Of a stretch of DNA of 64,000 nucleotides, positions 25,884-56,369 are shown one piece after another. Each line of letters begins with the position of its first letter. Within the stretch, counting starts at the first letter, position 1. Source of the DNA: an uncultured Planctomycetaceae bacterium (GTDB taxonomy: Bacteria; Planctomycetota; Planctomycetia; Pirellulales; Pirellulaceae); contig CAVWUB010000004.1 of the NCBI GenBank assembly GCA_963758085.1, forward strand, positions 334,259-398,258, in the 5' to 3' direction. The position numbers and the translations under genes were made by a program. Below the pieces are notes generated by a model, which was given only the letters and a program-made list of their open reading frames with translations, was not told the origin of the DNA and did not search any database.

Positions 25884-26927
25884 ATGTCCAGGCTGAAGCT
25901 GGATGATTATCACGTCGGCTCGGTGCTCGGTGTCGGCACCGTGGGAACCATCTACGCGGCGACGGAGAAGGCGACCGGCAAACCGGTCGCGATCAAAAAG
26001 CTGCATCCTGCGGTCAGCCGTAATCCACTGATCGGAGCACGCTTCCGCCGCGAGATGATGATCCTCGAAAAGCTCCGCCACCCCAATGTGATTGGGTACT
26101 TCGGTGGCGGCGAGGACATCGACGGCAACCTGTTCTACATCATGGAACTGGTCGAGGGGGGATCGATCCGCGACCTGTTGGACAGTAGCGGTTTCCTCGC
26201 TTGGCAGCTGGTCGTCAGCGCAGCGGTTCAAATCTGTTCGGCCCTCCAGTGCGCCCACAACCACGGCATCATTCACCGTGACCTGAAGCCTGGCAATCTG
26301 TTCCTGACGCGCGACGGCATGATCAAGCTCGGCGACTTCGGAATCGCCCGCGATGTCAGCGCTTCGGACCTTACCGACCAGGGCCTGACCGTGGGAACGC
26401 ACGCCTACATGGCTCCGGAGCAAATCACCGGCGACGCGACGATCTCCGGCAAAGCCGACCTGTATGCCTTGGGATGCTGCCTGTATGAGATGCTCACCGG
26501 TCAAAAGCCGTACATCGCCGACAGCTTCCCGCAACTGTTCGAGCAACACCTGCGGGCGGATCCGCCCAAGCCGAGCCGGATCATCCAGTGCCCGCCGGAG
26601 GTCGATGAGATCGTCATCCATCTGCTTGCGAAGCGGCCCGAGGATCGTCCGTTCAATGCCCGCGAGGTGCAGGGCAAGATGCTGCGGATCATGGACAAAT
26701 ATGGCCTTCGTGACGAAGTGTCGCGGCCGCCGACTGCTGGCAATATGAAGGACATTTCAGCCGGCCAAGTGCAGGACATGGGACGGCAAATGCTGCAGCG
26801 TCAGATCCGGGCGAGGCTCGGCGGCGAGGCCCGCCGGGAGGTCTCCTGGAGTAAATTTGCGGCGATTCTGGCGATGATTATTATCCTGTGCGTTGCGTTG
26901 GTGGTCGCTCGCCGGTTTTCGGCATGA
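25884..26927 (+). CDS. Serine/threonine protein kinase with a C-terminal TM anchor
   Basis: Gly-loop LGVGTVGTIY, VAIK, HRDLKPGNLFL, DFGIAR and APE motifs, plus a hydrophobic C-terminal helix. Confidence 0.85.
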   Translation: MSRLKLDDYHVGSVLGVGTVGTIYAATEKATGKPVAIKKLHPAVSRNPLIGARFRREMMILEKLRHPNVIGYFGGGEDIDGNLFYIMELVEGGSIRDLLDSSGFLAWQLVVSAAVQICSALQCAHNHGIIHRDLKPGNLFLTRDGMIKLGDFGIARDVSASDLTDQGLTVGTHAYMAPEQITGDATISGKADLYALGCCLYEMLTGQKPYIADSFPQLFEQHLRADPPKPSRIIQCPPEVDEIVIHLLAKRPEDRPFNAREVQGKMLRIMDKYGLRDEVSRPPTAGNMKDISAGQVQDMGRQMLQRQIRARLGGEARREVSWSKFAAILAMIIILCVALVVARRFSA

Positions 26928-30261: not shown

Positions 30262-30930
30262 GTGCAATCCGCAATCATGTGGCAGTCGCTACAACCGCTC
30301 ATCGAATCGTTGTTCGTCGGTCCGGTCTGGCCGGCTTCGGTGCTGTTGTTGTTGGTCTTGGGCTACCTGTTGTTGTCGCTGGGTACATCTTGGGATGTGG
30401 ACGGTCCGGACCTGGAGGTCGATGCCCACGTTTGGCAAAGCCTTGGAACTGCCACGCTGCGCTGGCTGCACTTGGATTCGGTTCCAGTGGTCATCTGGGG
30501 CGGTCTGTTTGCCTGCATCAACTGGTTGCTGGCCTACATCCTGTGGAATGCTTTTGATTCGGCGCGGCACGACCCGACGTGGCTTGTATCAGCGCTGCTG
30601 GCGACGCGCAACGCGGTGATCGCGGCGGTGATCACGAGGTTCGTCACCGCGCCGCTGGCGCCCTACCTGGGCGGCGGAGCGGCCTACGGTGTAGAGACGC
30701 TGATCGGCAGGTCGTGCGTCGTCTCCTCGGGTGAAGCGACGCCGACCTTTGGACAAGCGAAGTACGACACCGGCGGCGCTCCGCTGCTGCTCAACATCCG
30801 CACCGATGGACCTCATCTCGCCAAAGGCACACCGGTCCGCATCGTCTCCTTCGATCCCACCAAACGCATCTACTCTGTCACCCTCGATCTTGATACTGAT
30901 ATCAATACCTTTTCCGGGACCCAAACATGA
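30262..30930 (+). CDS. NfeD/YqiJ-like membrane protein (TM region plus a C-terminal soluble beta domain)
   Basis: Multiple TM helices are followed by a C-terminal ~70-aa soluble domain (GTPVRIVSFDPTKRIYSVTLDLD). It overlaps the flotillin start by 4 nt (ATGA), a pairing typical of nfeD-flotillin (yqiJ-yqiK, yuaF-floT) operons. Confidence 0.55.
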   Translation: MQSAIMWQSLQPLIESLFVGPVWPASVLLLLVLGYLLLSLGTSWDVDGPDLEVDAHVWQSLGTATLRWLHLDSVPVVIWGGLFACINWLLAYILWNAFDSARHDPTWLVSALLATRNAVIAAVITRFVTAPLAPYLGGGAAYGVETLIGRSCVVSSGEATPTFGQAKYDTGGAPLLLNIRTDGPHLAKGTPVRIVSFDPTKRIYSVTLDLDTDINTFSGTQT

Positions 30931-33118: not shown

Positions 33119-36100
33119 ATGACGACCAACGACGACCTCTCCGGCGGTACTTATGAGATCTTGCGCAACCGCCTTCGGGATGGAGCGACCGTGCTGCGCA
33201 ACCGCCTCGGCGGGCTTAACCAGGATCGTGCAGCGGTCTTCGGCAACATCCAAACCACACTGCTTGCCACCGAACGGGTGACGACGGAACACAATTGTGT
33301 ACCGCGAGATCTGGTGGCGGTCGGCGACCGCTTCTTGTTTGGATATAACGTCCAGTTCGGCCTAAAAACGGAGACGCATCTGCAGGACGTTTTCGCCTGC
33401 TATCGATTCGACGGTTTAGAGTTTCATCCTGAACCGCTTGAGAGTTTGCTGCGCGACGAGCGTTTCGCCACCGATTTTTCTGACCTCTACCGCTACTACA
33501 AACACACCGCGTTCACCCGTTTCTTTTCCAACGGTCCATTCGTCTACTTCGTGTTCCAGGTAGGACGCACTGCCGCGGATATCAAAGCGTTCAAGTGGCG
33601 GTCAGCCGGTGGCGAGTTTCAGTACGTCGATAACCGCAGCGAGCACGAGGTTGTCCACCCACCGCAACATGAGTTCGTGTGGAAACGCACCACGCGCGAC
33701 CAACATCACTACGGACGCCATCCGCACATCTCGATCGAAGACCGCATGTTTGTGGAAACCGTCGGCGGTGACTTGACTATCAAAGTTGAGAACAACACCG
33801 AATCCGGTGAAGGGATTTACAGCGAGCCGGTCGATCATGCCGACCAAACACTCGACGACGCCGAAATCTACTACGCATCGCTCGGCAACCTCGTACTGCT
33901 CAAGATCCGCCCGTATCAGGAGCAGCGGTTCCGTTTCCTCGTCTTCAATGCCAAGCTGAACACCGTGATCCGTATGGATGAGATCGAGCATGCATGCGTG
34001 ATGCTGCCCGACGATCAAGGGATCATCTTTCCCGGTGGATACTACTTACAGACGGGAGAGTATAAACGGTTCGATCACGGCCTCAATCAGATGCTCTATG
34101 AGCGAACACTGCCAGCATCCAATGGTGAGGATTTCCTGTATCTGTTCTATCAGCGCGACAGTGGAACTTACATCCAGCTGCGCTACAACCTGATCCGGCA
34201 GAGCGTCGACACGCCGATGATCACCAGCGGCCAGACGTTCTTTGGCGACGGCAAGATGGTCGCCTTCAAAGCGAATGAGCAGCCGCAGAAGCATCACGCC
34301 GTACAGATTTGGCAAACCCCGTTCACCGGTCCCGACTTTGTTCCCGACAGCAATTCCGATTCATTGTTATTCAAGATCGGCAATAAAGAACTCGTGCGCT
34401 GCATGGCTGAGTGCAGTGAGATCTTGCACCTGATCGACAAGGAAGACAACTACGAAGGTTTGTATGTCGATCTTGTCAAACGCAGCGGCGATGTGCTGGA
34501 TAGCTACTTCTGGATCGACAAGTCTGAGACACACAAACTCGATGAGCCGCTGCGCACGATCCGCGAGGCAGCTTCCGCCGCAGTCGAAGAGTATGAGAAG
34601 GTGGTTCGCTTGCGACGCGATACGAGCAGTCGCACCGAAACCGTCAAGCATTCCATCGAAGCGCTGATTAAGCAGCTCGACCTGGGCCGGTTTGAGGCCG
34701 TCGATGATTTTGTCAATGCACTGGCGAAACTGCGCGAGCAGCGCGGAGCTGCAATCGCCCTTCGCGAGCTGCGGTACGTCGATCTGCAAGTGGTCGAATC
34801 GCTCGAAAAGCTGACGGCCGAGCGTTCCGAACGGCTCAGTCGGCGGTGCGTCGATTTCCTTGCCACGCCGCATGCGCTCGATCCCTACCGTCAGCGTGTC
34901 GACAAGGCAGCGACCGCAGTTGCCGGGCTGGAGCGAGTGACGCAGGCGAAAGAGTTGCAAAAAACGATCGATGAAGCGGCAGGGCAACTGGAACTGCTGA
35001 CCGAGACGGTCAGCAACCTGCAGATCGAAGATACAACCAAGCGAACGGAGATCATCGACGGCATCAGCGAGGTTTTTGCCTCGCTCAATCGGGTTCGCAG
35101 CGCTCTGCGCTCGCGGCTATCGGAACTGATGGGCAGCGAGGGAAGAGCCGAGTTTGCATCGCAACTGAAGCTGCTGCAGCAGACCGTCAACGGCTACCTC
35201 GACGTCTGTGACGCGCCCGATAAATGCGACAGCTATCTGACCCGGCTGATGATCCAGTTGGAGGAACTCGAGGGCCGGTTCGCTGAGTACGACGAGTTTG
35301 TCAGCGAGCTGACTCAGCGCCGCGAGGACATCTACACCGCATTTGAGTCGCGCAAGGTTCAGCTCGTCGAGGCGCGCAATCGCCGCGCTGAGACACTCGC
35401 GTCATCGGCCAATCGGATCTTGCAGGGAATCCAGACCAAAGCCTCGTCGTTGAAGGGCGTCGACGAAATCCTCGCCTATTTCGCTTCCGATCTGATGGTC
35501 GACAAGGCGCGAGGCATCATTGAACAACTGCGCAAGCTCGACGATACGGTCCGCGCGGAAGAGATCGAAAGCCGGCTCAAAACGGTTCGCGAAGACACTG
35601 TCCGGCAGCTCAAGGATCGCCAGGAGCTGTTCGAGGACGGCGGCGACACAATCCGTCTGGGACGTCACCGGTTTGGGGTCAACACGCAGCCGATCGATCT
35701 GACGAGTGTTGTCCGGGATGGCGTGTTGAGTCTGCACGTGACGGGCACGCAGTTCTTTGAGCCGCTGGACGATCCCGACCTGCTCGCCGCTCAAGATTTA
35801 TGGAATCAGGAGCTGATCAGCGAGAATGCAGAGGTTTATCGCGGCGAGTTCCTGGCGACCGATCTGTTTGAAACCTGGAAACGGTCCGCCGATCATCCCG
35901 GCGCGGCCATCCCCACGCTCGCTTGGGTCCAGCAACAGATCGCGGGTCGATTTTCTGAGGGCTTTGCCAAGGGCGTGCATGACCACGACGCGGCGCTGAT
36001 CCTCGAAGCGCTGGTGCGTCTGGATCAGCAAATCGGCTTGCTCCGGCACCGCCCCAGCGCCCGTGCTGCGGCGACGCTCTGGTGGCAGCGTTTGATCTCG

Positions 36101-38377
36101 AAGGCGAATCGCAATGCTCTGACCAGCTGGATCGGCGGCTTCGCGCATCTGGCCAGAGCCTTCCCCGGCGCCCGCCCGGCCGCTGAGTTTCGCCAGCGGA
36201 TCGTCGACTTGGTAGGTGACCCTCAGCAGGATCATGGCAGCTCGCTGGCCGAGATTTTTCCGGACGTCACGGCAACCATGGTCGCCGATTATTTATTTGA
36301 TGTGCTGACCGCGGCGGCGGCGACGCCTGTCTTTAGCTCCACCGCGGCGCGGTGGTATGAGTCATTTTGCGAGTCGATGCCACAGGAGGACCGCAAGGCG
36401 TGGGTCACGGACGTGCTCGGCGCCAACAACGCTCGCCCGCTGGAGTCGTTCGTGCTGGCCCGCAACTGGGCCGATGCATTCTTGACCAGCCAGGCGCCTG
36501 CCGCCGACGTCATCGACCCGCCGTTGGATTATCGCGACGAATTGGCGCTGTTGATTCAGCAGGATGGGGTGGGCAATTCGCAAATAGTGACCGCACACGT
36601 TGCCCAGCAGGTCGAGGGACTGGTAGGCGATCATCGCCGCATTGCCGGCGGTAAGCTGGTGGTCCATTATCACGAGCTGCTGGAGCGATTGCGCCGGTAT
36701 CACGCTCGGGTCGTGCCGCGGTTCAAACGCTTGGGCACCGCGAAGCATCAGGTATTAGAACGCTCACGTGCGGAACTGCGATTGGATGAGTTCCGCCCCA
36801 AGGTGCTGACCAGCTTTGTCCGCAACCGGCTGATCGACGAGGTTTACTTGCCGATGATCGGCGACAACCTCGCCAAGCAACTCGGAGCGGCCGGTGAAAA
36901 CAAACGCACCGATCGCTCGGGCATGTTGCTGTTGATCAGCCCGCCGGGCTATGGCAAAACGACGCTGATGGAATACGTTGCCAATCGGCTGGGCGTCGTA
37001 TTCATGAAAATCAACGGCCCGACCATCGGCCATGGAGTCACGTCGCTCGATCCCGATGAAGCGCCCAACGCGGCGGCGCGGGAAGAGGTGGCGCGAATCA
37101 ACTTAGCCCTGGAAATGGGCGACAATGTGATGCTGTACCTCGACGACATCCAGCACACACACCCGGAGTTGCTGCAAAAGTTCATTTCGCTCTGCGACAG
37201 CACCCGCCGGATCGAAGGTGTGCGAAACGGACGCACCAAAACTTATGATCTGCGAGGCCGTCGGTTTGCCGTCGTCATGGCTGGAAATCCTTATACCGAA
37301 AGCGGCGAGCGATTTCAGATCCCCGACATGCTTGCCAACCGTGCCGACGTTTATAACCTCGGCGAAATCATCGGCGATGCCTCCGACGCATTCGAGATGA
37401 GCTACTTGGAAAATTGTTTGACCAGCAATGAGCATTTGGCGCCACTGGCGGCCGGCAATCCCGAAGACGCACGGCAACTGATCCGCGCCGCTGGGCGTGA
37501 CTCGATTGAGGGTGCCGAGCTGAAGGGGAATTACTCGGCGGACCAAGTGCGGTCGATGTTCGAGGTGCTGCGAAAACTTATCCGCGTGCGCGATGTCGTG
37601 CTCAAGGTCAACCGCGCCTATATCCGGTCCGCTGCGCAGGCGGATGCGTATCGCACCGAGCCGCCGTTCAAGCTGCAGGGCAGCTACCGCAACATGAACC
37701 GGATGGCGCAGAAGGTCGCACCGGTCATGAATGATGCGGAATTAGCAACACTCATCTATGCGAGCTACGAGCAGGATGCACAGACACTCACCACGGACAA
37801 CGAAGCCAATCTACTGAAGCTCAAAGAACTGCTCGGGACGCTCACGGTTCAGGAGCAGGAACGCTGGGATGCGATCAAGTACGCGTTTGTTGAAAACGTG
37901 CGAATGTCGGGAATCAGCACGGAAGACCAAGCCGGCCAAGTGCTGCGTCAACTCGCGTCGATGCGCGATGGGCTGGAGTCGATCCGTCAGGTGATTGCGC
38001 GAGCGGTTACCATTCACGGCGAAGGCGCCGAGCAGCGGATGGACGAGCGGTTCGATGCGCTGCGCAGCGGACTGGTCACCGCCACCGATCAGCTCGCCGT
38101 CGTGCTGCAGTCGACCGCCGGGCAGTTGCAGAAGATCAGCGAGTTCCAAGCCGCGAACCCACCGGAGCAGAATGTCACGGTCCAGCACAAGGTCCCACGG
38201 GTGATGCTCGATTTGATCCGTGGCCAGTTCCATCTGATGCAAGAATGGCTGCGCCCGATCCTCGAAGGCTCGACGGTGCAGGGGCGTGAACTGGAAAGCC
38301 TGCGCGTCCGCATCGACAGCATGCTCGATACCTACGTGCGGCTGCAATCAGAACTCGAATCGGCCGTCGACAAATAG
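33119..38377 (+). CDS. Giant (1752 aa) uncharacterised protein with a C-proximal AAA+ ATPase module
   Basis: A single uninterrupted ORF. Walker A LLISPPGYGKTTLMEY (about aa 1275), Walker B VMLYLDDIQH (about aa 1340) and a sensor/arginine region VVMAGNPYTESGERFQIPDMLANRADVY (about aa 1390). The N-terminal ~1200 aa have no motif I recognise, and the central region is coiled-coil-like. It is spaced 45 nt from flotillin on the same strand. Confidence 0.6.
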   Translation: MTTNDDLSGGTYEILRNRLRDGATVLRNRLGGLNQDRAAVFGNIQTTLLATERVTTEHNCVPRDLVAVGDRFLFGYNVQFGLKTETHLQDVFACYRFDGLEFHPEPLESLLRDERFATDFSDLYRYYKHTAFTRFFSNGPFVYFVFQVGRTAADIKAFKWRSAGGEFQYVDNRSEHEVVHPPQHEFVWKRTTRDQHHYGRHPHISIEDRMFVETVGGDLTIKVENNTESGEGIYSEPVDHADQTLDDAEIYYASLGNLVLLKIRPYQEQRFRFLVFNAKLNTVIRMDEIEHACVMLPDDQGIIFPGGYYLQTGEYKRFDHGLNQMLYERTLPASNGEDFLYLFYQRDSGTYIQLRYNLIRQSVDTPMITSGQTFFGDGKMVAFKANEQPQKHHAVQIWQTPFTGPDFVPDSNSDSLLFKIGNKELVRCMAECSEILHLIDKEDNYEGLYVDLVKRSGDVLDSYFWIDKSETHKLDEPLRTIREAASAAVEEYEKVVRLRRDTSSRTETVKHSIEALIKQLDLGRFEAVDDFVNALAKLREQRGAAIALRELRYVDLQVVESLEKLTAERSERLSRRCVDFLATPHALDPYRQRVDKAATAVAGLERVTQAKELQKTIDEAAGQLELLTETVSNLQIEDTTKRTEIIDGISEVFASLNRVRSALRSRLSELMGSEGRAEFASQLKLLQQTVNGYLDVCDAPDKCDSYLTRLMIQLEELEGRFAEYDEFVSELTQRREDIYTAFESRKVQLVEARNRRAETLASSANRILQGIQTKASSLKGVDEILAYFASDLMVDKARGIIEQLRKLDDTVRAEEIESRLKTVREDTVRQLKDRQELFEDGGDTIRLGRHRFGVNTQPIDLTSVVRDGVLSLHVTGTQFFEPLDDPDLLAAQDLWNQELISENAEVYRGEFLATDLFETWKRSADHPGAAIPTLAWVQQQIAGRFSEGFAKGVHDHDAALILEALVRLDQQIGLLRHRPSARAAATLWWQRLISKANRNALTSWIGGFAHLARAFPGARPAAEFRQRIVDLVGDPQQDHGSSLAEIFPDVTATMVADYLFDVLTAAAATPVFSSTAARWYESFCESMPQEDRKAWVTDVLGANNARPLESFVLARNWADAFLTSQAPAADVIDPPLDYRDELALLIQQDGVGNSQIVTAHVAQQVEGLVGDHRRIAGGKLVVHYHELLERLRRYHARVVPRFKRLGTAKHQVLERSRAELRLDEFRPKVLTSFVRNRLIDEVYLPMIGDNLAKQLGAAGENKRTDRSGMLLLISPPGYGKTTLMEYVANRLGVVFMKINGPTIGHGVTSLDPDEAPNAAAREEVARINLALEMGDNVMLYLDDIQHTHPELLQKFISLCDSTRRIEGVRNGRTKTYDLRGRRFAVVMAGNPYTESGERFQIPDMLANRADVYNLGEIIGDASDAFEMSYLENCLTSNEHLAPLAAGNPEDARQLIRAAGRDSIEGAELKGNYSADQVRSMFEVLRKLIRVRDVVLKVNRAYIRSAAQADAYRTEPPFKLQGSYRNMNRMAQKVAPVMNDAELATLIYASYEQDAQTLTTDNEANLLKLKELLGTLTVQEQERWDAIKYAFVENVRMSGISTEDQAGQVLRQLASMRDGLESIRQVIARAVTIHGEGAEQRMDERFDALRSGLVTATDQLAVVLQSTAGQLQKISEFQAANPPEQNVTVQHKVPRVMLDLIRGQFHLMQEWLRPILEGSTVQGRELESLRVRIDSMLDTYVRLQSELESAVDK

Positions 38378-38423
38378 CAGTCGTTTAACCGTGCTCGCTG
38401 AAAACGATTTGCCGGGTGCGGGA

Positions 38424-39470
38424 ATGTCGACTAATCTCGTGCCAACGGAGCGCGGTTGGCGGATCCGGCTTGGTGGCAGCGACTCAAGGCTTTCAGTTTT
38501 GGCAATCCAGTTTCAGTGCCATGAGTGTGGCAAAACGATCAGCGTGAAAGACGAACTAGCCGGTAAGCGGGTGAAGTGCCCGTGCGGCGCTGTCGTCACT
38601 GCAACCGCTGCGGCTCCCACGGCGACTGCCGGCGCCGCACGTCCTGCCCGGCCGGCGCCTGCGCGGCCGGTGCCCGCCCGACCGGTGGCTGCCCGACCCG
38701 CTGTTCAAACTTCTACCGCTGCCCGAGCGGGCACCGCACGCCCGGCACCGGGTCTACCGGCCAGCGGCAATCCGTACATCGCGGGCAGCAATGACCTCAG
38801 TTCGCTGTTTGATGAACTGACGGAATCGGATCTGCAGACCAAGCGTGAGCGGGATCAGCAGGCGGCGGACTCGCAGGCCGCGGTCAAAGATCCGCTGGCC
38901 GCCTACCGCCCCGATAAAGGCGGCAAAGCATCGCGTCCCGGCGGTGCCGGTCCGCGGCCGGTGGGGCTGACGATCCTGGCGGTCCTCAACTTTTTAATCG
39001 CGGCGCTCATGCTCACGCTCGGGGTGCTGTTCCTGGTTGGCACCCAAGCCTTCGGTGATGCCCTCGCAGAAGTGGAGTTCCTGCAAGAAGTCGCCACTGC
39101 CATTGCGGTGACGATACTCATCGCTGGCGGCTTTTGTGCAGCCACCGGCGCGGGGTTACTCAGCGGCCAGCCCTGGGGTTGGTGGCTCGGCACGACGGTC
39201 TATACATACAGTGCCTTCGACGGCATCTTCTCCATCATCTTCGCACTGCTCGAGGCCGCTCCGCCGGACACTGCATTTAAAAATGTTGGGAGGGTCCTGT
39301 TTGCGATCGGGGTCGTCTCCTACCTCTTTAATGAAGAACGTCGCGCGTATTACAGAATCCAAACCAAGCCCGCGATCGCCGCGGTGATCGTGATTGGCAC
39401 GATGGCAGTCCTAGCGTTCGCACTGCAATTGGGCCTGCACCTGATGGTCGAGGATGTGCCGGCCCAGTAG
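38424..39470 (+). CDS. Membrane protein with an N-terminal zinc ribbon, Pro/Ala-rich linker and a C-terminal 4-TM domain
   Basis: CHECGKTISVKDELAGKRVKCPCG (C-x2-C...C-x-C), then PAPARPVPARPVAARP repeats, then four hydrophobic helices. The start is set at the ATG at 38424 to avoid overlapping the upstream gene. Confidence 0.5.
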   Translation: MSTNLVPTERGWRIRLGGSDSRLSVLAIQFQCHECGKTISVKDELAGKRVKCPCGAVVTATAAAPTATAGAARPARPAPARPVPARPVAARPAVQTSTAARAGTARPAPGLPASGNPYIAGSNDLSSLFDELTESDLQTKRERDQQAADSQAAVKDPLAAYRPDKGGKASRPGGAGPRPVGLTILAVLNFLIAALMLTLGVLFLVGTQAFGDALAEVEFLQEVATAIAVTILIAGGFCAATGAGLLSGQPWGWWLGTTVYTYSAFDGIFSIIFALLEAAPPDTAFKNVGRVLFAIGVVSYLFNEERRAYYRIQTKPAIAAVIVIGTMAVLAFALQLGLHLMVEDVPAQ

Positions 39471-39516: not shown

Positions 39517-40629
39517 CTATTGCACAGCCGAAAAACGGTGCGTCGGCAGTGGCCGGCCGGGCCGGAAACTCTGTGTCTGAGTGACTTGGCAGCTCCCGCC
39601 CACCGACCGGCAAGCCTGCTCGACCGCCTGCTGCACCAGTTCTTGCAGCGTCTGCGGATCGATGGCCACGCGAGCGTTGACCACCACATCGGCCGCTGCG
39701 GTCTGGCACTGGGAGGCCAATGACAGTTCGGCTGGCGACAGGCTGCTGGTCAAGTTGGCGACCGCGGAAAAACCTTCCCACAGCCCGATCGCTTTCAGGT
39801 GAGCGGTTTCAGCGCCGGCATGGGCCAGCGACGCCTGCAGCGCCGCGACAATCCCCAGGATCAATTCGTCTAGCGCAAACGGCTCATTGGCCGTAGCCTT
39901 CAAACTCATATTGAGCCAGCCGAGTTCCGCTTCGCCCTCGGCGTAAATGTCGTAGTCGATTTCCAGCGTCCGCCGCCCGAAGTCGCCGCGCTGGTCGAGC
40001 ATTTCTAGCAACAGGTCGAACCCGGCCCCGGTACGCGCGCTGGTCCGCAGGATCGGCACTCCGGCGGCTTCGGTCGCCAATAGCCCCGCCAACTCATCGA
40101 GTTCCTCTGCCGTCAGCTCGTCGGCGCGATTGATGATCACGAAGTCGGCTTCTTCGAGCTGTTTTTTGAAGATGTACTGGGCCTTGGGCGAGAAACCGGC
40201 CCGCTGACCACCGGAAAGGATGCGTTTACCGTGATTTGGCTTGAGGATGACGCCATAAGGTGCCACGTCGAACTGCTCGCCCAACAATTGCACCAGCGGC
40301 TGGATCACGGTGGCGACCAAGTCGGTGCAACTACCGACCGGCTCGGCCAGAATCACGTCCGGCCGCCCATCGCGACCGAGCTCTTCAGCCCGCTGAGTCA
40401 GCTCATTGAAATTGCAGCAGAAACAAGAGCCCGCTACCTCGCCGACCTCAAAGCCCTGCGCCCGCAGCGTCTGCGTGTCGACCAGATCGGTCGCTTGATC
40501 GTTGGTCACGATCGCCACCCGCAGCCCACGGCTCTGATAAGTGCGAGCCAACCTGGCAATGGTGGTCGTCTTACCGGCGCCAAGGAAGCCGCCGAGCATG
40601 ATGAATCGAATCGGTGCCATGGGACGCAA
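39517..40629 (-). CDS. G3E-family P-loop GTPase (HypB/UreG/CobW-like), putative metallochaperone
   Basis: The N-terminal P-loop is GGFLGAGKTT. IVTNDQATDLVDTQTLRAQG and EPVGSCTDLVATV resemble the UreG/HypB Switch and ENVGNLVCP regions. A CFCC Cys cluster is present. There is a ~170-aa C-terminal extension of unknown function. Confidence 0.45.
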   Translation of the reverse strand: MRPMAPIRFIMLGGFLGAGKTTTIARLARTYQSRGLRVAIVTNDQATDLVDTQTLRAQGFEVGEVAGSCFCCNFNELTQRAEELGRDGRPDVILAEPVGSCTDLVATVIQPLVQLLGEQFDVAPYGVILKPNHGKRILSGGQRAGFSPKAQYIFKKQLEEADFVIINRADELTAEELDELAGLLATEAAGVPILRTSARTGAGFDLLLEMLDQRGDFGRRTLEIDYDIYAEGEAELGWLNMSLKATANEPFALDELILGIVAALQASLAHAGAETAHLKAIGLWEGFSAVANLTSSLSPAELSLASQCQTAAADVVVNARVAIDPQTLQELVQQAVEQACRSVGGSCQVTQTQSFRPGRPLPTHRFSAVQ

Positions 40630-40776: not shown

Positions 40777-42318
40777 TTATCCGGCGGCCGCGATGGCGTC
40801 ACTGGCGGCTTCAGGTTCCAGCGGCACTGGCTGATCGCAGACGAGGTCGGCGAGCGTTTTATCGCCGGCGGCGGCAAGCTGGGCGGCTTTGAGCGCATCG
40901 AGCGTCTGCCAAGCGGTGCCCGAGAGGCCGGAGGGCAATTCGTGAGCGATCTCCAACACATCGCGAATCTGAATCGACTCCGGCGGACATGCCAGCGTGT
41001 AACTCTCGTCAGCTTCATCCGAACAAGCCAACCGGGCGACCCAGCCGGCGGCTTCCAGCTTGCGAACCATCGAGTGCACGACGGTTGTTGGTAGCAGCAA
41101 CCGCTCGGACAGGTCCTGCTGGTCGGTCGCACTGCCGCGCATGAACGCCTGGCCGATCGTGACCAGAATCGGCAAGATCCAAATCGGGTCGCCGGTAGGA
41201 AGGTTGGCCAGTGGCGTTTGCAGCTTGGCGGGGTAACGTCCGCGGAGGGTCTGTAGGGTGTGGGTCAGCACCACGCCGAACAAGATGATCATCCACGTCA
41301 CGTAGATCCAGAACAGGAACAGTGGGATCAGTCCCAATGAGCCGTACAACGACGAATAGGGGAGTGCTTTGACCACGTAGAGCTGGAAACCGAGCTTGGC
41401 GACTTCCCACAGCGCCGCTCCAACGGCCGCGCCGATCGCTGCGGCGCGAAGCGAGACGTGGGTGTTGGGCATCAGCGCGTAGAGCAGGAACAGCAGCACC
41501 CAGCTAGCGAGGATCGACAGGCCCCGGGTCAGCACCGTCGCCGTGGTCGCGATCGGGACGACCCCCGAGAGGTACTCGATGAACTGCCCGGACAGATAGA
41601 GGCTGGCCGCCAGCAGGCCGCTGCCCAAGGTGATGATCGACCAATGGATCGCCAGCCGCAGGTGTAGAGGACGCTCCGTGGGCGCCTCAAAGATGATGTT
41701 GAACAGATATTCCACAGCGTTGGAGAGCGCCACGGCGGTGTAGATGAACAGCAGCAGACCAAAGATCCCCAGCGAGGCGAAATCGAGGCTGGCGACCTTG
41801 CCGGTCGCCTCCCGCAGCCCCCGGCGGATGCTCGCCTTCACTTCGTGGCTCTCATCGCTCAAGTCGGCGATCGGCTCAGCTAACGCCGTATCCAACACCG
41901 TATCCCCCGATTCGGGCTCGGCTGCCTCCAGATCGAGCCCATACGTCTCGGGCACTTCGGGGACGCCGAAAAATGAGTAGAGCTGGTTTTCCAGACTCGC
42001 CTGGACTTCCTCCACTCCGCCGACGACACGAAACATCACCAGGCTCAAGACCACGACCGGAATCAGCGAAAAGATCGTCCGATAGGTCAGCTCGGCGGCC
42101 ATGCCTTCGGCCCGTACCCGCGCCAATTCACGATAACAGTGAGCCGCAATCCGTCCCGCCTTGCGAACGCGGATCTGCAGCCGAGTCAGTTCGTCTTCGG
42201 GACGAGCAAAGAAGTCCTGCAGTCGTTCAATATGTTCACGCAGCATAGACGCCGAGCCGATGGGACTGGAAAATACGGACCGAGCCGGTGCCGACAGCAG
42301 CGAGTGGGGGGTCAACAC
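40777..42318 (-). CDS. YihY/BrkB-family inner-membrane protein with a C-terminal soluble (winged-helix-like) extension
   Basis: ELTYRTIFSLIPVVVLSLVMF and about 6 TM helices are typical of YihY/BrkB. A ~130-aa C-terminal hydrophilic domain follows. The start could be 42318 or the internal MLREH. Confidence 0.55.
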   Translation of the reverse strand: MLTPHSLLSAPARSVFSSPIGSASMLREHIERLQDFFARPEDELTRLQIRVRKAGRIAAHCYRELARVRAEGMAAELTYRTIFSLIPVVVLSLVMFRVVGGVEEVQASLENQLYSFFGVPEVPETYGLDLEAAEPESGDTVLDTALAEPIADLSDESHEVKASIRRGLREATGKVASLDFASLGIFGLLLFIYTAVALSNAVEYLFNIIFEAPTERPLHLRLAIHWSIITLGSGLLAASLYLSGQFIEYLSGVVPIATTATVLTRGLSILASWVLLFLLYALMPNTHVSLRAAAIGAAVGAALWEVAKLGFQLYVVKALPYSSLYGSLGLIPLFLFWIYVTWMIILFGVVLTHTLQTLRGRYPAKLQTPLANLPTGDPIWILPILVTIGQAFMRGSATDQQDLSERLLLPTTVVHSMVRKLEAAGWVARLACSDEADESYTLACPPESIQIRDVLEIAHELPSGLSGTAWQTLDALKAAQLAAAGDKTLADLVCDQPVPLEPEAASDAIAAAG

Positions 42319-42706
42319 CGACTGTTCGGGTCAAGGGGTCAGCAGTCAATTGTGCGCAGCACCTGAAGGGCCGTGCCGGCAATTCACTCCTGACCCCTTA
42401 ACCGCTCCTGCACGAATCCATCCGGCCGTTCATCATACCGCAGGTCCTGTGCCCAGCCGATCGGTGAGCGCTGCTCACAGCTTGACGGCTTACCGGCGAC
42501 GATGGTCACAACCCTCACCCAGATGGCTCGAATGCGCCGCTCAAGCGGACCAACTGCGCAAAAGCTATATCGCATCGGTGCCCTCGGCGTTACAACGGTG
42601 GCCTTTCGGTGAGTTATCCCAAAGATCGAGTCGGAGTCGGAATCGTTTGCTGATGCTCAAGGATCTAAGCCCTCTAAAAGTGCCCGTCGATTCAGCGGTT
42701 CGCAGC

Positions 42707-43579
42707 ATGACCGGCCAGGGTACCGGTCGCGTTGAGAGCGAACTCGGTTCGCTGACGGTGGAGTTGCGTTCGGTCAACCAACGCGGACTGCGGGTCTCGC
42801 CGCGGATGGGCGAACTGCTATCGCCGCTCGAAAGTCGCTTTGAGCAGCTGATCCGTAGCCAGTTGAAGCGCGGAGCGCTGCAGGCTTCGGTTCGCTTTGC
42901 GCCCTCGGCGGCCATTTTGCCGACAATGATCAACTCGGAGGTGGTCATCGCCTACGTGGCCCAGCTGCGTCAGATCCGCACCTCGATCGGGCTCCAGGAT
43001 CCAATTGATCCGACCGGACTGCTGCAGTTGCCCGGAGTGATCAGCGGGACGGAAGGGGCGGCGATTGATCCCGAAGCGGTGTGGCCACTGCTGCAGGAAG
43101 CGACCGAGCTGGCGCTGCAGAGCCTTGACGAGATGCGCGCTGTCGAAGGTGCGGCGATGGCTGTTCAGCTGCGACTGGATGCCGCCTCGATCTCAGAGCA
43201 GCTGCGGCAAATCACGGTTCTGGCACCCCGGGTCGTGGTCCAGCATCGCGATCGGCTCGAAGGCCGTGTTACGCGTTACTTGGAACAGCGCGGCTTGGAG
43301 GTGACGCAGTTGGACTTGCTGCGTGAAGTGCAATTGTTCGCCGATCGTTGTGACATCAGCGAAGAAATCACGCGGCTCTCTAGCCACCTGCAACTGTTTG
43401 CCGACACGCTCGGCGGCTCCGAAGCCAGCGGCCGTAAACTCGATTTCATCATCCAGGAAATGTTCCGCGAGACCAACACGATCGGCAGCAAGGCCAGCGA
43501 CGCTCAAATCGCCGCGCTGGTGGTCGAGATCAAGTGTGCCCTGGAGCGAATGCGTGAACTGGTGCAAAATCTTGAGTAA
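42707..43579 (+). CDS. yicC: YicC-family stress-induced protein
   Basis: The N-terminus MTGQGTGRVESELGSLTVELRSVNQRGL and C-terminus KLDFIIQEMFRETNTIGSKA are conserved YicC N- and C-terminal domains. The upstream in-frame extension overlaps the opposite-strand gene and was rejected. Confidence 0.75.
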   Translation: MTGQGTGRVESELGSLTVELRSVNQRGLRVSPRMGELLSPLESRFEQLIRSQLKRGALQASVRFAPSAAILPTMINSEVVIAYVAQLRQIRTSIGLQDPIDPTGLLQLPGVISGTEGAAIDPEAVWPLLQEATELALQSLDEMRAVEGAAMAVQLRLDAASISEQLRQITVLAPRVVVQHRDRLEGRVTRYLEQRGLEVTQLDLLREVQLFADRCDISEEITRLSSHLQLFADTLGGSEASGRKLDFIIQEMFRETNTIGSKASDAQIAALVVEIKCALERMRELVQNLE

Positions 43580-43584
43580 CGAAC

Positions 43585-44217
43585 GTGCGTAACTTTGATG
43601 CCGGAATCATGACTAGGAACGAACCGGCCCGCGGCCAGCTGATCATCGTCTCCGGCCCCAGCGGTGCGGGTAAGTCGACCGTCGTGCGCCGGCTGATCCA
43701 GGAATGCCCGCTGCCGCTGGCGACGAGCATTTCGGCGACCACGCGGCAGCCGCGAGACACCGAACGCGACGGCATCGATTACTTCTTCATGTCCCCGGAG
43801 CGATTCGCCCAGCTCCAGCGCGAGGGGGCGTTTGTCGAGTGCAAACAGAACTTCGGGCTGCAGCACTGGTACGGGACGCTGCACGATCAGGTTGCCGCTG
43901 GCTTAAATGCCGGCAAATGGTTAATCTTAGAGATCGATGTTCAGGGCGCGATGGAGGTGATGGAAAATCCTCACTTCGACCCGATCACCATCTTCATCCA
44001 TCCCGGCGGCTTGGATGAGCTGGAACGCCGACTGCGAGGCCGTGGCAGCGAAACCGAAGAATCGCTGGCAGCCCGGCTAAAAACCGCTGCGGCGGAAATG
44101 CGGTACATGTCGCGCTACCAATACGAAGTGGTCAACGCGTCGGTCACCCAAGCTGTCACCGAAATCTGCCAGATCTTACTGCACGCTAAGGAACTGAACG
44201 AATGCTCGAAGAGCTAA
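43585..44217 (+). CDS. gmk: Guanylate kinase
   Basis: LIIVSGPSGAGKSTVVRRL...SISATTRQPRDTERDGIDYFFMSPERF. It is a conserved yicC neighbour. Confidence 0.85.
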   Translation: MRNFDAGIMTRNEPARGQLIIVSGPSGAGKSTVVRRLIQECPLPLATSISATTRQPRDTERDGIDYFFMSPERFAQLQREGAFVECKQNFGLQHWYGTLHDQVAAGLNAGKWLILEIDVQGAMEVMENPHFDPITIFIHPGGLDELERRLRGRGSETEESLAARLKTAAAEMRYMSRYQYEVVNASVTQAVTEICQILLHAKELNECSKS

Positions 44218-49599: not shown

Positions 49600-50181
49600 A
49601 TGTCCCGCACCTTCGCCCTTTTGGTCACACTGTTGGTAAGTGCCGCGGTTCCAGCTGCGAATGCCGAAGAACCCAAATCGCCTGGCGTGGGTGATCCGGC
49701 GCCTACGTTTGAGGCGCAGGATGACCAAGGGAAAACCTGGAAGTCGTCCGAACATTTCGGCAAGAAGATCGTCGTGATTTACTTTTATCCTGCGGACATG
49801 ACCGGTGGGTGTACCGCTCAAGCGTGCGCGTTCCGCGATGACATGGGCGAGTTGGCTGACAAGGAAGTTGAAGTCGTTGGAGTCAGTGGTGACTCAGTGG
49901 AAAACCACCAGTTGTTTAAGAAAGCGCACGGCTTGAACTTTACCCTGCTAGCCGACGTCGACGGTAAAGTCGCCGATGCGTTCGGGGTGCCGAAAACGGT
50001 CGGCGAGAAGACCGTCAAGGCGGTCATTGACGGAGTGACTCACGATCTCACCCGCAACGTCACCACCCAGCGTTGGACCTTTATCGTCGACCGTGATGGC
50101 AAAATCGCCTATAAGGATCCGAGCGTGAACGCCCGTCAGGACAGCCAAAAGGTCTTGGCCGCCCTGGATAAACTGCGCTAA
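49600..50181 (+). CDS. bcp: Secreted peroxiredoxin, Bcp/PrxQ type
   Basis: A signal peptide, and FYPADMTGGCTAQACAFRDD closely matches the Bcp active site FYPKAMTPGCTVQACGLRD. Confidence 0.8.
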   Translation: MSRTFALLVTLLVSAAVPAANAEEPKSPGVGDPAPTFEAQDDQGKTWKSSEHFGKKIVVIYFYPADMTGGCTAQACAFRDDMGELADKEVEVVGVSGDSVENHQLFKKAHGLNFTLLADVDGKVADAFGVPKTVGEKTVKAVIDGVTHDLTRNVTTQRWTFIVDRDGKIAYKDPSVNARQDSQKVLAALDKLR

Positions 50182-50645
50182 GCACCCGGGAACAATTGGG
50201 TTCAGTCAGCGGATTTTTCCAAAACCACTAAGGATTGGTTTCGGCTAAGTCAATCCCAACAGCCGGACTGTGTCTCGACATTGAATAGATCCATGAGCAT
50301 TGAAGCTTAGGTCATGCTTGGCGTGGTCGGATTCGACTTTGTAGTCGTCGCCGGCGTGCGTGAGACGCGGGCTTGCTGGGCTGGGCAGGACAACAGATCC
50401 CTGGTCGGGCAAAAACAGAATGAGGTGTGATGCTCCGCCTAGCCGGGGTGGTGCTGCCGATGTTCGCCTTCCTGAACAATACGCCTGTCGCCGCGATGTT
50501 CGTGCCGGTGGTCCTCGACTGGTGCCGCCGGCAGTCACTGTGCTGGAAGGCAGTCTGGGTAGCGGCAGGCAAATCCGTTACACTTTGCCGGCCCACACCG
50601 GATTGTTGCATTTGATGTCCCGCCGAAGCCGTCGACGGATCGCTG

Positions 50646-53591
50646 ATGAGCCTTGCCCTGATCGTTTTGCTCCCGTTTCTCGGAGCCGTGCTACCGGCGC
50701 TGATGATTCGTTCAGGACGAGATGCGTGTGCGATCGCGACCGGATCAATCAACACGCTCGCTCTGGCACTTTTGCTGACCAACATCCCGGCAGTGCTCCG
50801 CGGCGAGGTCGTTCGCGCCGATTGGCCGTGGATGTCTCGCCTGGGCTTGAATATCCAGTTCTTCGTCGATGGGCTCGGGTTGCTGTTTGCCGCGATGATT
50901 TTGGGCATCGGGCTGCTGATCGTGCTGTATGCCCGATTCTACCTGTCCGATGGCGACACGATGGGCAACTTTTACACGTACCTACTGCTCTTTCAGGGGG
51001 CGATGGTCGGCATCGTGTTGTCCAACAACGTGCTGCTGATGCTGATCTTTTGGGAACTAACCAGCCTGTCGTCGTTCTTGTTGATCGGATTTTGGGGACA
51101 TACGGCGGCCGGGCGGCAGGGCGCGAGGATGGCGCTGACGGTCACCGGCGGAGGAGGGTTGGCATTAATCGCTGGCATGATGCTGCTGGGGCACATCGCC
51201 GGCTCCTATGAGTTGACCGAGATCCTTACCAGCGGCGCGGCAGTCCGCAGTTCAGCGCTCTATCCGTGGGCACTGATGCTGATCCTGATTGGCTGTTTCA
51301 CCAAGAGTGCGCAGTTTCCATTTCACTTCTGGCTGCCTCATGCCATGGCTGCGCCGACACCGGTTTCGGCGTACCTGCACTCAGCGACGATGGTCAAAGC
51401 GGGCATCTTTCTGATGGCCAGGTTGTGGCCGGTCCTATCGGGGACTGACCTGTGGTTCTACATCGTCGCGACGACAGGCCTGGTGACGATGCTGGTCGCC
51501 GCCACCATTGCGCTGTTTGAAGACGACCTAAAAGGTTTATTGGCTTATTCTACGGTCAGCCACTTAGGTCTGATGACGATGCTGCTGGGGTTTTCAACGC
51601 CGATGGCGGTGGTTGCCTGCATGTTGCACATCATCAATCATGCGACATTTAAGGCGGCCCTGTTTATGAATACCGGTATCATCGATCACGAGACCGGTAC
51701 CCGAGACCTTCGCAAACTTGGCGGGCTGATCCACCTCATGCCGATGACGGCAACGCTCGGCATCACGGCCGCCGCGTCGATGGGTGGTTTACCGCTGCTA
51801 AGTGGCTTTCTCTCTAAAGAGATGATGCTCGAGGAGGCATCTCATACCGTCTGGGCGGGATCAACTTGGGTGCTTCCCGTGCTGGTCACGCTGGCAGCAG
51901 TGCTGTCAATGGCATACTCGCTGCGCTACATCGCTCACCTGTACCTCGGCAAACAACGCGATGACTACCCTCAACCGCCGCACGATCCAGGGTTGGGCTT
52001 AACGCTGCCGTCGGCTGTGTTGGTGGTCTTGGTGGTCTTGGTCGGGTTGTTTCCTGAAACGTTTGCGGGAACCACGGTGCGACTTGCATCGTCAGCTGTA
52101 CTGCAAGCACCGCTGCCGGAGTTTCACCTGGCGATCTGGCACGGTTGGACTCCGGCCGTGACAATGTCGGCGATCGCAATCGTCGTCGGATTTAGCACAT
52201 TGCTCGCATTTGGTTTGATTCGTGAACCTTGGACGCGGCTGCCGCTGCCCGTAGGCAAGTCGCTCTTTGATGCCCTCATCGATGCGCTTGCCGCCCTTTC
52301 GCGGGCGGTGGGCTCAGGACTCCACAACGGTTCGCTGCAGCGCTATTTGTTTGTGATGATCACCACCACACTCATCCTGGGCATGTGGTCATTTATAAGG
52401 CACGAACATGCCGCTGGCCAGCGGCCTCTGATGCCAATCAACGCAGTCGTTTTCGTTGCCTGGTTGCTCCTGATGGGCTCTTGCTTCTTGATCATCCGCC
52501 ATCATGCAGACCGTTTATTGGCGTTGATCATTGTCAACGTGATCGGGCTGATCGCGTCACTGGGGTTCGTCTACCTGTCAGCACCCGACCTGGCGCTGAC
52601 TCAGATTTCGGTCGAGGTGGTGACGCTGATCCTGATGCTCTTGGCGCTTTACTTCTTGCCAAAACATTCACTGACAGCGGTAACGCGGGCGGTGCGTGTT
52701 CGGCATGGCCTGTTGTCGGTGTTTGCCGGAGCAGCCGCAGGTGGTCTGACCTGGGCGATGATGACACGCGATTCCAAGTCAATTTCAGAATACTACTGGC
52801 AACAGGCGATTCCCGGCAGCGGCGGCAAGAATGTCGTCAATGTGATCATCGTTGACTTCCGCGGCTTTGACACTTTCGGCGAGATCATGGTACTGGGCAT
52901 CTCAGCGCTGATCATCTACGCACTGCTCGAGGGGATGCTGCGCGGGGAGGCATTGATGAAGCTGGCAATGTGGAACTCAGACCAGCGGTATTCACCCAAT
53001 CGCCACCCACTGGTGATGGTGGTGGTAACGCGGCTGATGTTACCTTTGGCGCTGATGGTCAGCGTGTTCATCTTCCTGCGCGGCCATAATATGCCAGGAG
53101 GCGGCTTCATTGCCGCATTGGTGGTGGCGATTGCGCTGATCATGCAGTACATGGCCAGCGGGTTCGGCTGGGCCGCCAAGCAGGTGCGATTCGACTACCA
53201 CGCGCTGATCGGCGGCGGTGCCTTGATCGCTGCGGCGACAGGGATTTCTGCGATGGTTCTGGATCTCCCCTTTCTGACCAGCGGCCATGACCATTTTCAT
53301 TTGCCTTGGATCGGCGACGTCGAACTTTCCAGTACCGTCGCATTTGATCTTGGCGTGTTTCTAACAGTAGTTGGCGGGGTGATGCTGGCGCTGGCGCAGT
53401 TATCTTACCTCGGAGAGAACACCGCTCGAGAAAAGATGAATGAAGAGCCGATGGATTTTGATCCCTCGGCGCGGCGGCCTCGGCTCGCCTCTGCCGATCA
53501 ACAAGCGGCAAGTGCAGCGGCGTCGCTGCCGCGACCTCAAGCCGGCCAGATCACTGGTTCGGAAGCGTCCGATTTCCCTAAAGAGCACTGA
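50646..53591 (+). CDS. mrpA: Na+/H+ antiporter subunit A, fused with subunit B (MrpA/MrpB)
   Basis: A 981-aa polytopic protein with NuoL-like MrpA conservation. The extra ~200 aa at the C-terminus are consistent with an MrpB fusion. It is the first gene of a 7-cistron mrp cluster. Confidence 0.8.
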   Translation: MSLALIVLLPFLGAVLPALMIRSGRDACAIATGSINTLALALLLTNIPAVLRGEVVRADWPWMSRLGLNIQFFVDGLGLLFAAMILGIGLLIVLYARFYLSDGDTMGNFYTYLLLFQGAMVGIVLSNNVLLMLIFWELTSLSSFLLIGFWGHTAAGRQGARMALTVTGGGGLALIAGMMLLGHIAGSYELTEILTSGAAVRSSALYPWALMLILIGCFTKSAQFPFHFWLPHAMAAPTPVSAYLHSATMVKAGIFLMARLWPVLSGTDLWFYIVATTGLVTMLVAATIALFEDDLKGLLAYSTVSHLGLMTMLLGFSTPMAVVACMLHIINHATFKAALFMNTGIIDHETGTRDLRKLGGLIHLMPMTATLGITAAASMGGLPLLSGFLSKEMMLEEASHTVWAGSTWVLPVLVTLAAVLSMAYSLRYIAHLYLGKQRDDYPQPPHDPGLGLTLPSAVLVVLVVLVGLFPETFAGTTVRLASSAVLQAPLPEFHLAIWHGWTPAVTMSAIAIVVGFSTLLAFGLIREPWTRLPLPVGKSLFDALIDALAALSRAVGSGLHNGSLQRYLFVMITTTLILGMWSFIRHEHAAGQRPLMPINAVVFVAWLLLMGSCFLIIRHHADRLLALIIVNVIGLIASLGFVYLSAPDLALTQISVEVVTLILMLLALYFLPKHSLTAVTRAVRVRHGLLSVFAGAAAGGLTWAMMTRDSKSISEYYWQQAIPGSGGKNVVNVIIVDFRGFDTFGEIMVLGISALIIYALLEGMLRGEALMKLAMWNSDQRYSPNRHPLVMVVVTRLMLPLALMVSVFIFLRGHNMPGGGFIAALVVAIALIMQYMASGFGWAAKQVRFDYHALIGGGALIAAATGISAMVLDLPFLTSGHDHFHLPWIGDVELSSTVAFDLGVFLTVVGGVMLALAQLSYLGENTAREKMNEEPMDFDPSARRPRLASADQQAASAAASLPRPQAGQITGSEASDFPKEH

Positions 53592-53593
53592 AG

Positions 53594-56359: not shown

Positions 56360-56369
56360 AGCTAGACTC

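Follow-up and report, generated by a model that had tools for sequence, protein, structure and literature searches.

A giant AAA+ ATPase encoded after flotillin and NfeD/YqiJ genes in a planctomycete: a candidate remodeller of flotillin membrane assemblies

In a 64,000-nucleotide stretch of DNA from an uncultured Planctomycetaceae bacterium (GenBank assembly GCA_963758085.1, contig CAVWUB010000004.1, positions 334,259 to 398,258; in the following "the window"), the open reading frame (ORF) 33119..38377 (+) has an ATG start and encodes a giant AAA+ ATPase of 1752 amino acids. It is the third gene of a module that also encodes a small YqiJ/NfeD-like membrane protein and a long flotillin. Relatives of this ATPase gene almost always lie directly after flotillin and NfeD/YqiJ genes, so the protein is most likely a remodeller of flotillin membrane assemblies. 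For the fuller proposal, a ring-forming, ATP-driven remodeller of flotillin/NfeD assemblies that works by the steps outlined below, we see slightly better than even odds (about 0.55). The ORF is a real gene conserved over its full length and represents an ordinary planctomycete orthologue within a catalogued family that has already been noted computationally. A previous sequence-only reading of this ORF had described one AAA+ module in a protein of a size that it found atypical for a single P-loop; its interpretation is partly supported by our analysis. The most informative feature, the YqiJ/NfeD-flotillin operon upstream, lies outside the segment it dealt with. The genes of the module are:

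30262..30930 (+): gene 1, small YqiJ/NfeD-like (DUF1449-type) membrane protein, 222 amino acids
30927..33074 (+): gene 2, long flotillin-like SPFH protein, 715 amino acids
33119..38377 (+): gene 3, giant AAA+ ATPase, 1752 amino acids

All three genes are located on the same strand. The stop codon of gene 1 overlaps the flotillin start by 4 nucleotides (ATGA), and a gap of 44 nucleotides separates the flotillin from the ATPase gene. The product of gene 1 contains hydrophobic segments and has weak Pfam matches only (YqiJ_N, E 5.6e-4; NfeD C-terminal domain, E 3.2e-4). Its identity to the protein at the same position in Stieleria amounts to 43%, and the protein at the equivalent position in Hymenobacter carries the PGAP name "DUF1449 family". 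The product of gene 2 consists of a transmembrane segment (about residues 6-43), an SPFH domain, a helical region rich in E, A and K, and a conserved C-terminal domain. It shares 77% identity with its Stieleria neighbour and matches the NCBIfam model FloT at residues 51-314 (E 5e-5). Since no direct Pfam match was obtained for this protein, even at E 10, its identity was established via orthologues: a profile built from 20 of them matches the SPFH protein QmcA (8z5g), Pfam Band_7 is found in 4 of the 20 (best E 7e-14), and their PGAP names are "SPFH domain-containing" and "flotillin family". Transmembrane segments are present in the products of genes 1 and 2 and absent from the ATPase, whose highest 19-residue Kyte-Doolittle mean is 1.34 and which is predicted to be soluble. 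The three genes are best read as one membrane module, in which the giant protein provides the soluble ATPase subunit alongside the YqiJ/NfeD-like protein and a YqiK-type long flotillin. Counts from a promoter and terminator scan (29-39.8 kb) were no higher than in shuffled sequence.

For the gene context we considered 85 related loci, 66 of which have at least 2.3 kb of upstream sequence. In 63 of these 66, a flotillin orthologue is encoded upstream on the same strand, at a distance below 600 nucleotides in 45 loci and of 0.6-2.7 kb in the other 18. With phmmer, 38 of 65 loci were found to have an NfeD/YqiJ-like gene just ahead of the flotillin gene. The triad is also annotated in Stieleria, on a Hymenobacter plasmid, on pQBR103 of Pseudomonas fluorescens, on a linear Streptomyces plasmid and on a Deinococcus plasmid. 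In at least ten phyla, the ATPase is genetically locked to the genes for flotillin and NfeD. Where the flotillin and ATPase genes are set apart (18 of the 63 loci, e.g. L023, L033, L040, L049 and L076), the insert mostly comprises one to three small ORFs. Ten sampled insert ORFs turned out to be heterogeneous (DMP19-like, DUF3997, DUF3592, DUF559 endonuclease-like, IS200 transposase), which suggests a permissive insertion site; on account of this heterogeneity we rejected them as hidden components of the module.

The family is large. More than 6500 homologues were found in a search of 5.8 billion proteins, the best 120 being Planctomycetota proteins of about 1710-1800 amino acids with 99-100% query coverage. 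With residues 1-1200 as query, phmmer returned 1395 clusters, 449 (50% identity) at E <1e-30, from 1.84 billion cluster representatives, and full-length members of 1550-2036 amino acids align across this entire query. A scan with one genome per species, for which SPPGYGKTT and [YL][LVI]DDIQH served as the two retrieval patterns, found a relative in at least 579 genomes. From these we kept 80 loci belonging to Planctomycetota, Bacteroidota, Verrucomicrobiota, Kiritimatiellota, Desulfobacterales and Clostridia. Profile and plasmid searches added Acidobacteriota, Myxococcota, Sumerlaeota, Actinomycetota, Deinococcota and Gammaproteobacteria. The window ATPase is 62-91% identical to relatives from other Planctomycetota and 27-55% identical to those from other phyla; identity roughly follows taxonomy. 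Homologues of about 1550-2040 amino acids are collinear across phyla; the ORF is not a fusion artefact of two genes, an objection raised by the sequence-only reading itself. That reading was right in finding a single P-loop, which it regarded as atypical for a protein of this size. Such a layout is constant in a large family and hence no peculiarity of the window gene.

In the mechanism that we propose, the AAA+ domains would form a ring, probably hexameric like those of CbbQ and NorQ, with R1408 possibly acting in trans as arginine finger. The predicted N-terminal propeller and the helical arm of about 420 residues would dock this ring onto the flotillin/NfeD assembly from the cytoplasmic side, the conserved C-terminal domain of the flotillin being the likeliest site. 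Upon ATP hydrolysis, force could be transmitted via conserved loops expected to face the pore (GPxLGHxVTSLDP and the pre-sensor-1 hairpin) to a polypeptide segment belonging to flotillin, to NfeD or to a client protein that the assembly holds. Pulling on this segment would open, disassemble or recycle the assembly, or extract clients from it, during membrane stress; in operons that contain PspA, the module may act jointly with this protein. The idea of one AAA+ module per subunit within a ring, already put forward in the sequence-only reading, appears sound to us: the candidate arginine finger fits, and CbbQ and NorQ are hexameric.

Several points weigh against this proposal. The functional link between ATPase and flotillin stems from gene neighbourhood alone. 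In many bacteria, E. coli among them, YqiJ-YqiK occur without the giant ATPase, which is therefore not a general requirement of flotillin assemblies. Conversely, three of the 66 loci (L030, L032 and L056) encode the ATPase without an adjacent flotillin orthologue. Flotillin itself, NfeD, PspA and client proteins are all candidate substrates, and the middle domain (residues 886-1183) as well as the small beta domain have no assigned function and matched no family or fold. Furthermore, our structural model of the ATPase part (residues 830-1752) does not predict the helix-2 insert hairpin that MoxR proteins typically have, and no VWA domain was seen in those neighbouring genes of the window and of loci L001-L005 that were annotated or scanned.

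More generally, and tentatively, this family might be the so far missing machine that uses ATP to disassemble or open bacterial flotillin/NfeD assemblies, and also PspA in those operons that encode it. Docked by its propeller and arm, the MoxR-class motor would thread a segment of flotillin or of a client. We consider this generalisation possible, albeit at odds well below even. If it were true, bacterial membrane microdomains would be actively recyclable, and the family would provide an AAA+ remodeller devoted to an SPFH scaffold and lacking its own protease domain, the first of this kind. One ATPase stands out as candidate energy source because its gene is almost obligately linked to those of a long flotillin and an NfeD/YqiJ protein, in a family with more than 6500 members from Planctomycetota, Bacteroidota, Verrucomicrobiota, Actinomycetota, Pseudomonadota, Deinococcota, Clostridia and other phyla.

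The operon type has been described before in a comparative genomics study that reports no experiment (Ravi et al. 2024, mSystems; PMC11237479), and our literature search turned up no experimental study of it. Its authors found the ATPase in an operon with CesT/Tir-PspA and a 3TM YqiJ/YuaF protein, noted that abbreviated operons lacking PspA are more widely distributed, and proposed roles in sub-membrane dynamics. Domain order, length and neighbours of the window copy are the same as in this family operon, as are the motifs SPPGYGKTT, DDIQH, AGNPYTESG and QGSYRNM. Nothing essential differs; the window copy merely has a longer C-terminal helical extension that is absent from many members in the Bacteroidota. 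As no PspA homologue is encoded anywhere in the 64-kb window, the module corresponds to the "abbreviated operon" of that study. From other work summarised in PMC13086221, SPFH-NfeD pairs are known to form cage-like assemblies (QmcA-YbbJ), and FloA-NfeD of S. aureus stabilises unfolded proteins without ATP.

The PspA-containing operons raise the question whether the ATPase acts on PspA, the bacterial ESCRT-III, as a disassembly or remodelling enzyme analogous to Vps4, with flotillin and NfeD as a mere platform that recruits PspA. A PspA/IM30 gene belongs to the same co-directional cluster in 21 of the 85 loci, mainly in the Bacteroidota, where it forms an upstream extension (see also L002, 4589-8802, and L003, 983-8827). 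For example, the Hymenobacter plasmid carries the full set of Tir-like chaperone, PspA, DUF1449 protein, flotillin and ATPase, whereas pQBR103 adds a YjfI-YjfJ(PspA)-DUF2491-DUF350-DUF1190-glutathionylspermidine-synthase-like cluster and a rhomboid protease. Besides, PMC11237479 places the ATPase in PspA-CesT/Tir operons and states that most PspA homologues have no known ATPase. On the other hand, PspA is missing not only from the window but also from the vicinity of the orthologue in Stieleria, Streptomyces and Deinococcus, and the link to flotillin (63 of 66 loci) is far tighter than that to PspA. The motor is of the MoxR class rather than of the classical AAA clade to which Vps4 belongs, and no MIT-like domain was detected with Pfam. 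We therefore regard PspA as an unlikely principal substrate.

The AAA+ core with its Walker A, Walker B and sensor positions is located where the sequence-only reading had put it. A motif scan of the ORF assigned LLISPPGYGKTTLMEY (residues 1271-1286) to the Walker A region, DNVMLYLDDIQHTHPELL (residues 1335-1352) to the Walker B region and VVMAGNPYTESGERFQIPDMLANRADVYNLG (residues 1385-1415, with N1390) to the sensor 1 region. PPGYGKT with K1280 is the sole P-loop of the GxxGK[ST] type in the giant protein, and MLYLDD with D1342/D1343 the sole match to hhhhD[DE]. Pfam AAA and AAA_5 both exceed their gathering cut-offs at residues 1270-1394. For the overall architecture we predicted two overlapping AlphaFold2 models from 68-sequence alignments, model A for residues 1-880 and model B for residues 830-1752, with mean confidence scores (predicted local distance difference test, pLDDT) of 86.4 and 85.8, respectively. 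Prediction in overlapping segments had been suggested earlier; the models show a layout of propeller, arm, AAA+ core and lid. In detail, the following parts were distinguished:

33134..33241 (+): N-terminal long helix, residues 6-41 (model A); L26, R37 and F41 are invariant
33254..34318 (+): predicted beta-propeller, residues 46-400, core of DUF3686; all-beta at residues 47-399 in AlphaFold2, pLDDT about 90
34364..35629 (+): helical arm, residues 416-837 (model A), with long helices (48, 58 and 52 residues among them) and short loops; holds DUF7902
34871..35122 (+): DUF7902, residues 585-668, inside the helical arm
35648..35764 (+): small beta domain, residues 844-882, with the motif LGxHRFxVN...HLTGTxF; strands in both models
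35774..36814 (+): middle helical domain plus linker helix into the ATPase, residues 886-1232 (model B), with the motif RYxEGYxKGVHDxDA
36815..37363 (+): AAA+ alpha/beta core, residues 1233-1415, of AAA_5 (MoxR/midasin/dynein) type
36938..36964 (+): Walker A/P-loop SPPGYGKTT, residues 1274-1282 (K1280, T1281); S1274-T1281 invariant
37130..37147 (+): Walker B MLYLDD, residues 1338-1343 (D1342, D1343), directly followed by an invariant IQH
37208..37249 (+): predicted pre-sensor-1 beta-hairpin, residues 1364-1377, RIEGV..G...TYDL
37271..37363 (+): strand beta4 with sensor 1 (N1390, AGNPYTESG), then helix IPDMLANRAD with the candidate arginine finger R1408
37364..37828 (+): enlarged helical lid, residues 1416-1570 (model B), with extra helices before the candidate sensor 2
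37673..37696 (+): candidate sensor-2 motif LQGSYRNM, residues 1519-1526 (R1524); a lid helix begins at residue 1523 in the model
37829..38374 (+): C-terminal long helices, residues 1571-1752 (29, 43 and 58 residues in AlphaFold2, lower pLDDT)

The motor belongs to the MoxR/midasin/dynein (AAA_5) class as far as its modelled fold is concerned. AAA_5 (the "dynein-related subfamily") matches with 29.9 bits against a gathering score of 22 and is covered at positions 2-126 of its 139. It spans the entire core in all 24 members tested, whereas the AAA model is matched over its own first half only. In sequence searches of the PDB, the matches to classical AAA proteins (Rix7, p97) and to RuvB are confined to helix alpha0 and the P-loop. 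Structure comparison of the AAA+ part gave the highest score for CbbQ, a MoxR AAA+ protein (17.0, with 237 residues aligned at 3.2 Å), followed by NorQ (16.2), midasin (14.4), dynein (14.1-13.2) and, with 12.8 or less, ClpA, NVL, ClpB and others; Foldseek likewise ranks NorQ and CbbQ at the top. Model B predicts strands at residues 1364-1369 and 1372-1377 (535-540 and 543-548 in the numbering of the model) between alpha3 and beta4, i.e. the pre-sensor-1 hairpin. Sensor 1 and the invariant R1524 are 134 residues and five helices apart, which would be compatible with a pre-sensor-2 insert (judged from the predicted secondary structure). Between beta2 (residues 1294-1299) and alpha2 (residues 1318-1333) the model has an 18-residue conserved loop that includes a 4-residue helix. 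By our own reading, the stretch of sensor 1 and candidate arginine finger resembles the MoxR motif NPxExEGxxxLPEAxLDRF. The classical AAA clade (Vps4, p97/Cdc48, FtsH, NSF) was considered and rejected: the giant protein does not fit its combination of an aromatic-hydrophobic-Gly pore loop 1, a second region of homology with two Arg fingers and the absence of the pre-sensor-1 hairpin that is predicted here.

MoxR-class ATPases are normally paired with a VWA-domain partner. As no such partner was seen among the annotated or scanned neighbouring genes and the protein is six times the size of CbbQ or NorQ, we take it to be MoxR-class in fold without being a canonical MoxR system. CbbQ and NorQ (PDB 6l1q, 9qh4) are stand-alone proteins of about 260 residues, form hexamers in these entries and act with a VWA-domain adaptor (CbbO, NorD). 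Compared with them, the giant ATPase is longer by about 1230 residues at the N-terminus and about 180 at the C-terminus, and sequence identity amounts to only 14-16%.

To assess conservation we used a diverse set of 30 homologues of full length, which share 32-48% identity with the window protein, and the 68-sequence set. K1280, T1281, D1342, D1343, N1390, R1408 and R1524 are invariant in both, so the ATPase motifs are not degenerate, a second objection that the sequence-only reading had considered. Additionally invariant in the 30 homologues are G1389, P1391, P1402, M1404, L1405 and N1407 around N1390 and R1408, the residues L1519, Q1520, G1521, S1522, Y1523 and M1526 around R1524, and, in the hairpin region, R1363, while G1367, G1371 and G1380 are at least 90% conserved there. 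Mean identity to the window protein is 0.72 in the AAA+ core, 0.47 in the lid, 0.45 in the small beta domain, 0.43 in the propeller, 0.30-0.40 in the helical arm, 0.23 in the middle domain (the second least conserved region) and 0.13 in the C-terminal helices, which are present in 59% of the rows. Conservation thus peaks in the catalytic and putative pore-facing loops of the ATPase and not in its arms.

The sequence-only reading had described the N-terminal 400 residues as aromatic-rich, and rightly so (20 and 16 F/W/Y per 100 residues in two of four blocks). Its statement that the N-terminal 1200 residues carry no recognisable motif did not hold, as Pfam DUF3686 (PF12458), predicted to adopt a beta-propeller fold, matches residues 26-464 (E 1e-188, model positions 2-448 of 448) and DUF7902 (PF25472) matches residues 585-668 over its whole model length (E 4.2e-27). 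The roughly 28 predicted strands of the DUF3686 propeller are consistent with about seven four-stranded blades. Foldseek propeller matches of the N-terminal domain include WD40 proteins (DCAF1, EED), prolyl-oligopeptidase and the clathrin terminal domain, and a DUF3686 profile found no solved relative in the PDB at the sequence level, even at E 10. At residues 470-800, where a long coiled coil had been placed, the models show long helices that are interrupted by short loops (a helical bundle or arm), which does not demonstrate one continuous coiled coil. In the small beta domain, G848 and F852 are invariant in both alignments, N855 in alignment A3 and G876 in alignments A1 and A3, and T877 is nearly so. 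The middle domain proper (residues 886-1183, 35774..36667) contains an invariant motif of GVHDxDA type and is followed by a linker helix of 37 residues. Residues 1416-1752 are all-helical in the model, in agreement with the earlier description of the region after the ATPase, about half of which is now assigned to the AAA+ lid (residues 1416-1570). The C-terminal helical region is missing or shorter in many homologues; members from the Bacteroidota stop at about query residue 1630.

Given that some 1200 of the 1752 residues form non-catalytic propeller and helical domains, the protein might instead be mainly a structural, coat-like scaffold beneath the membrane, its AAA+ domain serving as a nucleotide-dependent assembly switch and not as a threading motor. 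Among the Foldseek matches of residues 1-880 are proteins in which a propeller precedes helical repeats, namely the clathrin heavy chain (1xi4, 1bpo, 5ods) and the RZZ subunit ROD (7qpg), and the long variable C-terminal helices would suit a scaffold as well. With TM-scores of 0.08-0.2, the resemblance to clathrin and ROD is one of architecture only, and the concentration of conserved residues in catalytic and pore-facing loops argues for an active motor. A mainly structural role hence seems improbable to us. The clathrin-like architecture deserves mention in view of the planctomycete origin of this genome, even though the family is not specific to planctomycetes.

A large NTPase with a propeller also recalls sensor NTPases, and one could envisage an anti-phage or conflict system in which the propeller senses an invader and the ATPase triggers a membrane-directed response through flotillin and NfeD. 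Copies on megaplasmids (13 plasmid records carry the giant ATPase) would fit this idea, as would the selfish elements sometimes inserted beside the ATPase gene (IS200 transposase, DUF559 endonuclease-like gene) and the LexA-family regulator that adjoins the Hymenobacter cluster. However, a scan of the ATPase and the flotillin-like protein against PADLOC-DB v2 gave only marginal matches for the former (LmuB coiled coil, E 1.4e-4; IetA P-loop, E 4.6e-4) and none for the latter. The match to LmuB, an SMC-like protein, covers residues 493-839 of the arm and reflects coiled-coil composition. A Pfam scan of the ATPase revealed neither a nuclease, protease or TIR domain nor an effector domain of any other kind, the motor is an AAA+ and not a STAND domain, and a search of a phage collection returned no match. 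Moreover, defence genes evolve fast, whereas this core retains 72% identity across phyla, and the agreement of identity with taxonomy points in the same direction. A role in conflict therefore has little probability in our view.

The databases offer yet another explanation: Pfam describes DUF3686 as "ATPase involved in DNA repair", and PGAP assigns the product name "DNA repair ATPase". Weak matches to RuvB_N and RuvB appear to agree with this name, but they are confined to the P-loop region and fall below the cut-offs (22.6 versus 27 bits for Pfam RuvB_N; 22.9 versus 282 bits for NCBIfam RuvB). No DNA-binding, nuclease or helicase domain was found with Pfam, and the recurring neighbours are membrane proteins and not repair genes. 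We accordingly do not place the protein among repair or recombination ATPases of the RuvB or SMC/RecN-like kind. Our literature search found no paper that names DUF3686 or PF12458, or that ties "DNA repair ATPase" to flotillin or to any experiment. Judged from sequence and gene context, the database name is probably wrong, and a function in DNA repair is the most improbable of the explanations considered. Renaming the family would stop the misleading "DNA repair ATPase" label, which it carries in Pfam and RefSeq, from spreading further.

A remodeller of flotillin assemblies would have counterparts among known systems. To our knowledge, HflK/C with the protease FtsH is the only well-understood pairing of an SPFH protein with an AAA+ protein. 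In this system, as in that of the m-AAA protease and prohibitin, an SPFH membrane assembly is coupled to a ring-shaped AAA+ ATPase, and the window proteins may be coupled likewise. FtsH is a membrane-anchored AAA protease of the classical clade that resides inside the cage, whereas the giant ATPase is predicted to be soluble, is MoxR-class and has no protease domain; its SPFH partner is of the flotillin type and is accompanied by NfeD, unlike that of FtsH. The proposed logic is closer to that of Vps4 with ESCRT-III and NSF with SNAREs, in which an oligomer on the membrane is recycled by a soluble AAA+ ring whose N-terminal domain serves for recognition. In some lineages the ESCRT-III homologue PspA is even encoded in the same operon. 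Vps4 and NSF belong to another AAA+ clade, though, and the giant protein would use a propeller and a helical arm in place of an MIT or NSF-N domain; flotillin and PspA are substrates by proposal only.

Immediately downstream of the module lies the ORF 38286..39470 (+), which overlaps the end of the giant gene by 92 nucleotides if a GTG start is used. Its product has a CxxC zinc-ribbon-like motif (weak LysW-type match) and hydrophobic C-terminal segments. We considered and rejected it as a fourth component, the downstream gene not being conserved: it has no similarity to the Stieleria gene at the same position and so is probably not part of the module. Further downstream, 39517..40629 (-) encodes a CobW/COG0523 GTPase and 40777..42318 (-) a protein in which a BrkB/YihY-type membrane domain is joined to a MarR-type winged-helix segment at the C-terminus. 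The YicC-like ORF 42161..43579 (+) is directly followed by the guanylate kinase gene 43585..44217 (+), forming a yicC-gmk pair. As the YicC-like domains begin only at residue 180 of this ORF, its true start is probably near 42.7 kb. On the other side, about 3.3 kb upstream of the module, 25884..26927 (+) encodes a eukaryote-type Ser/Thr protein kinase (Pkinase, E 4e-53). Finally, the region 50000..58000, which holds a 981-residue ORF (50646..53591) and further ORFs on the + strand, has a strongly negative AT skew (-0.10 to -0.19) and a GC content of 0.565-0.58, below that of the rest of the window.

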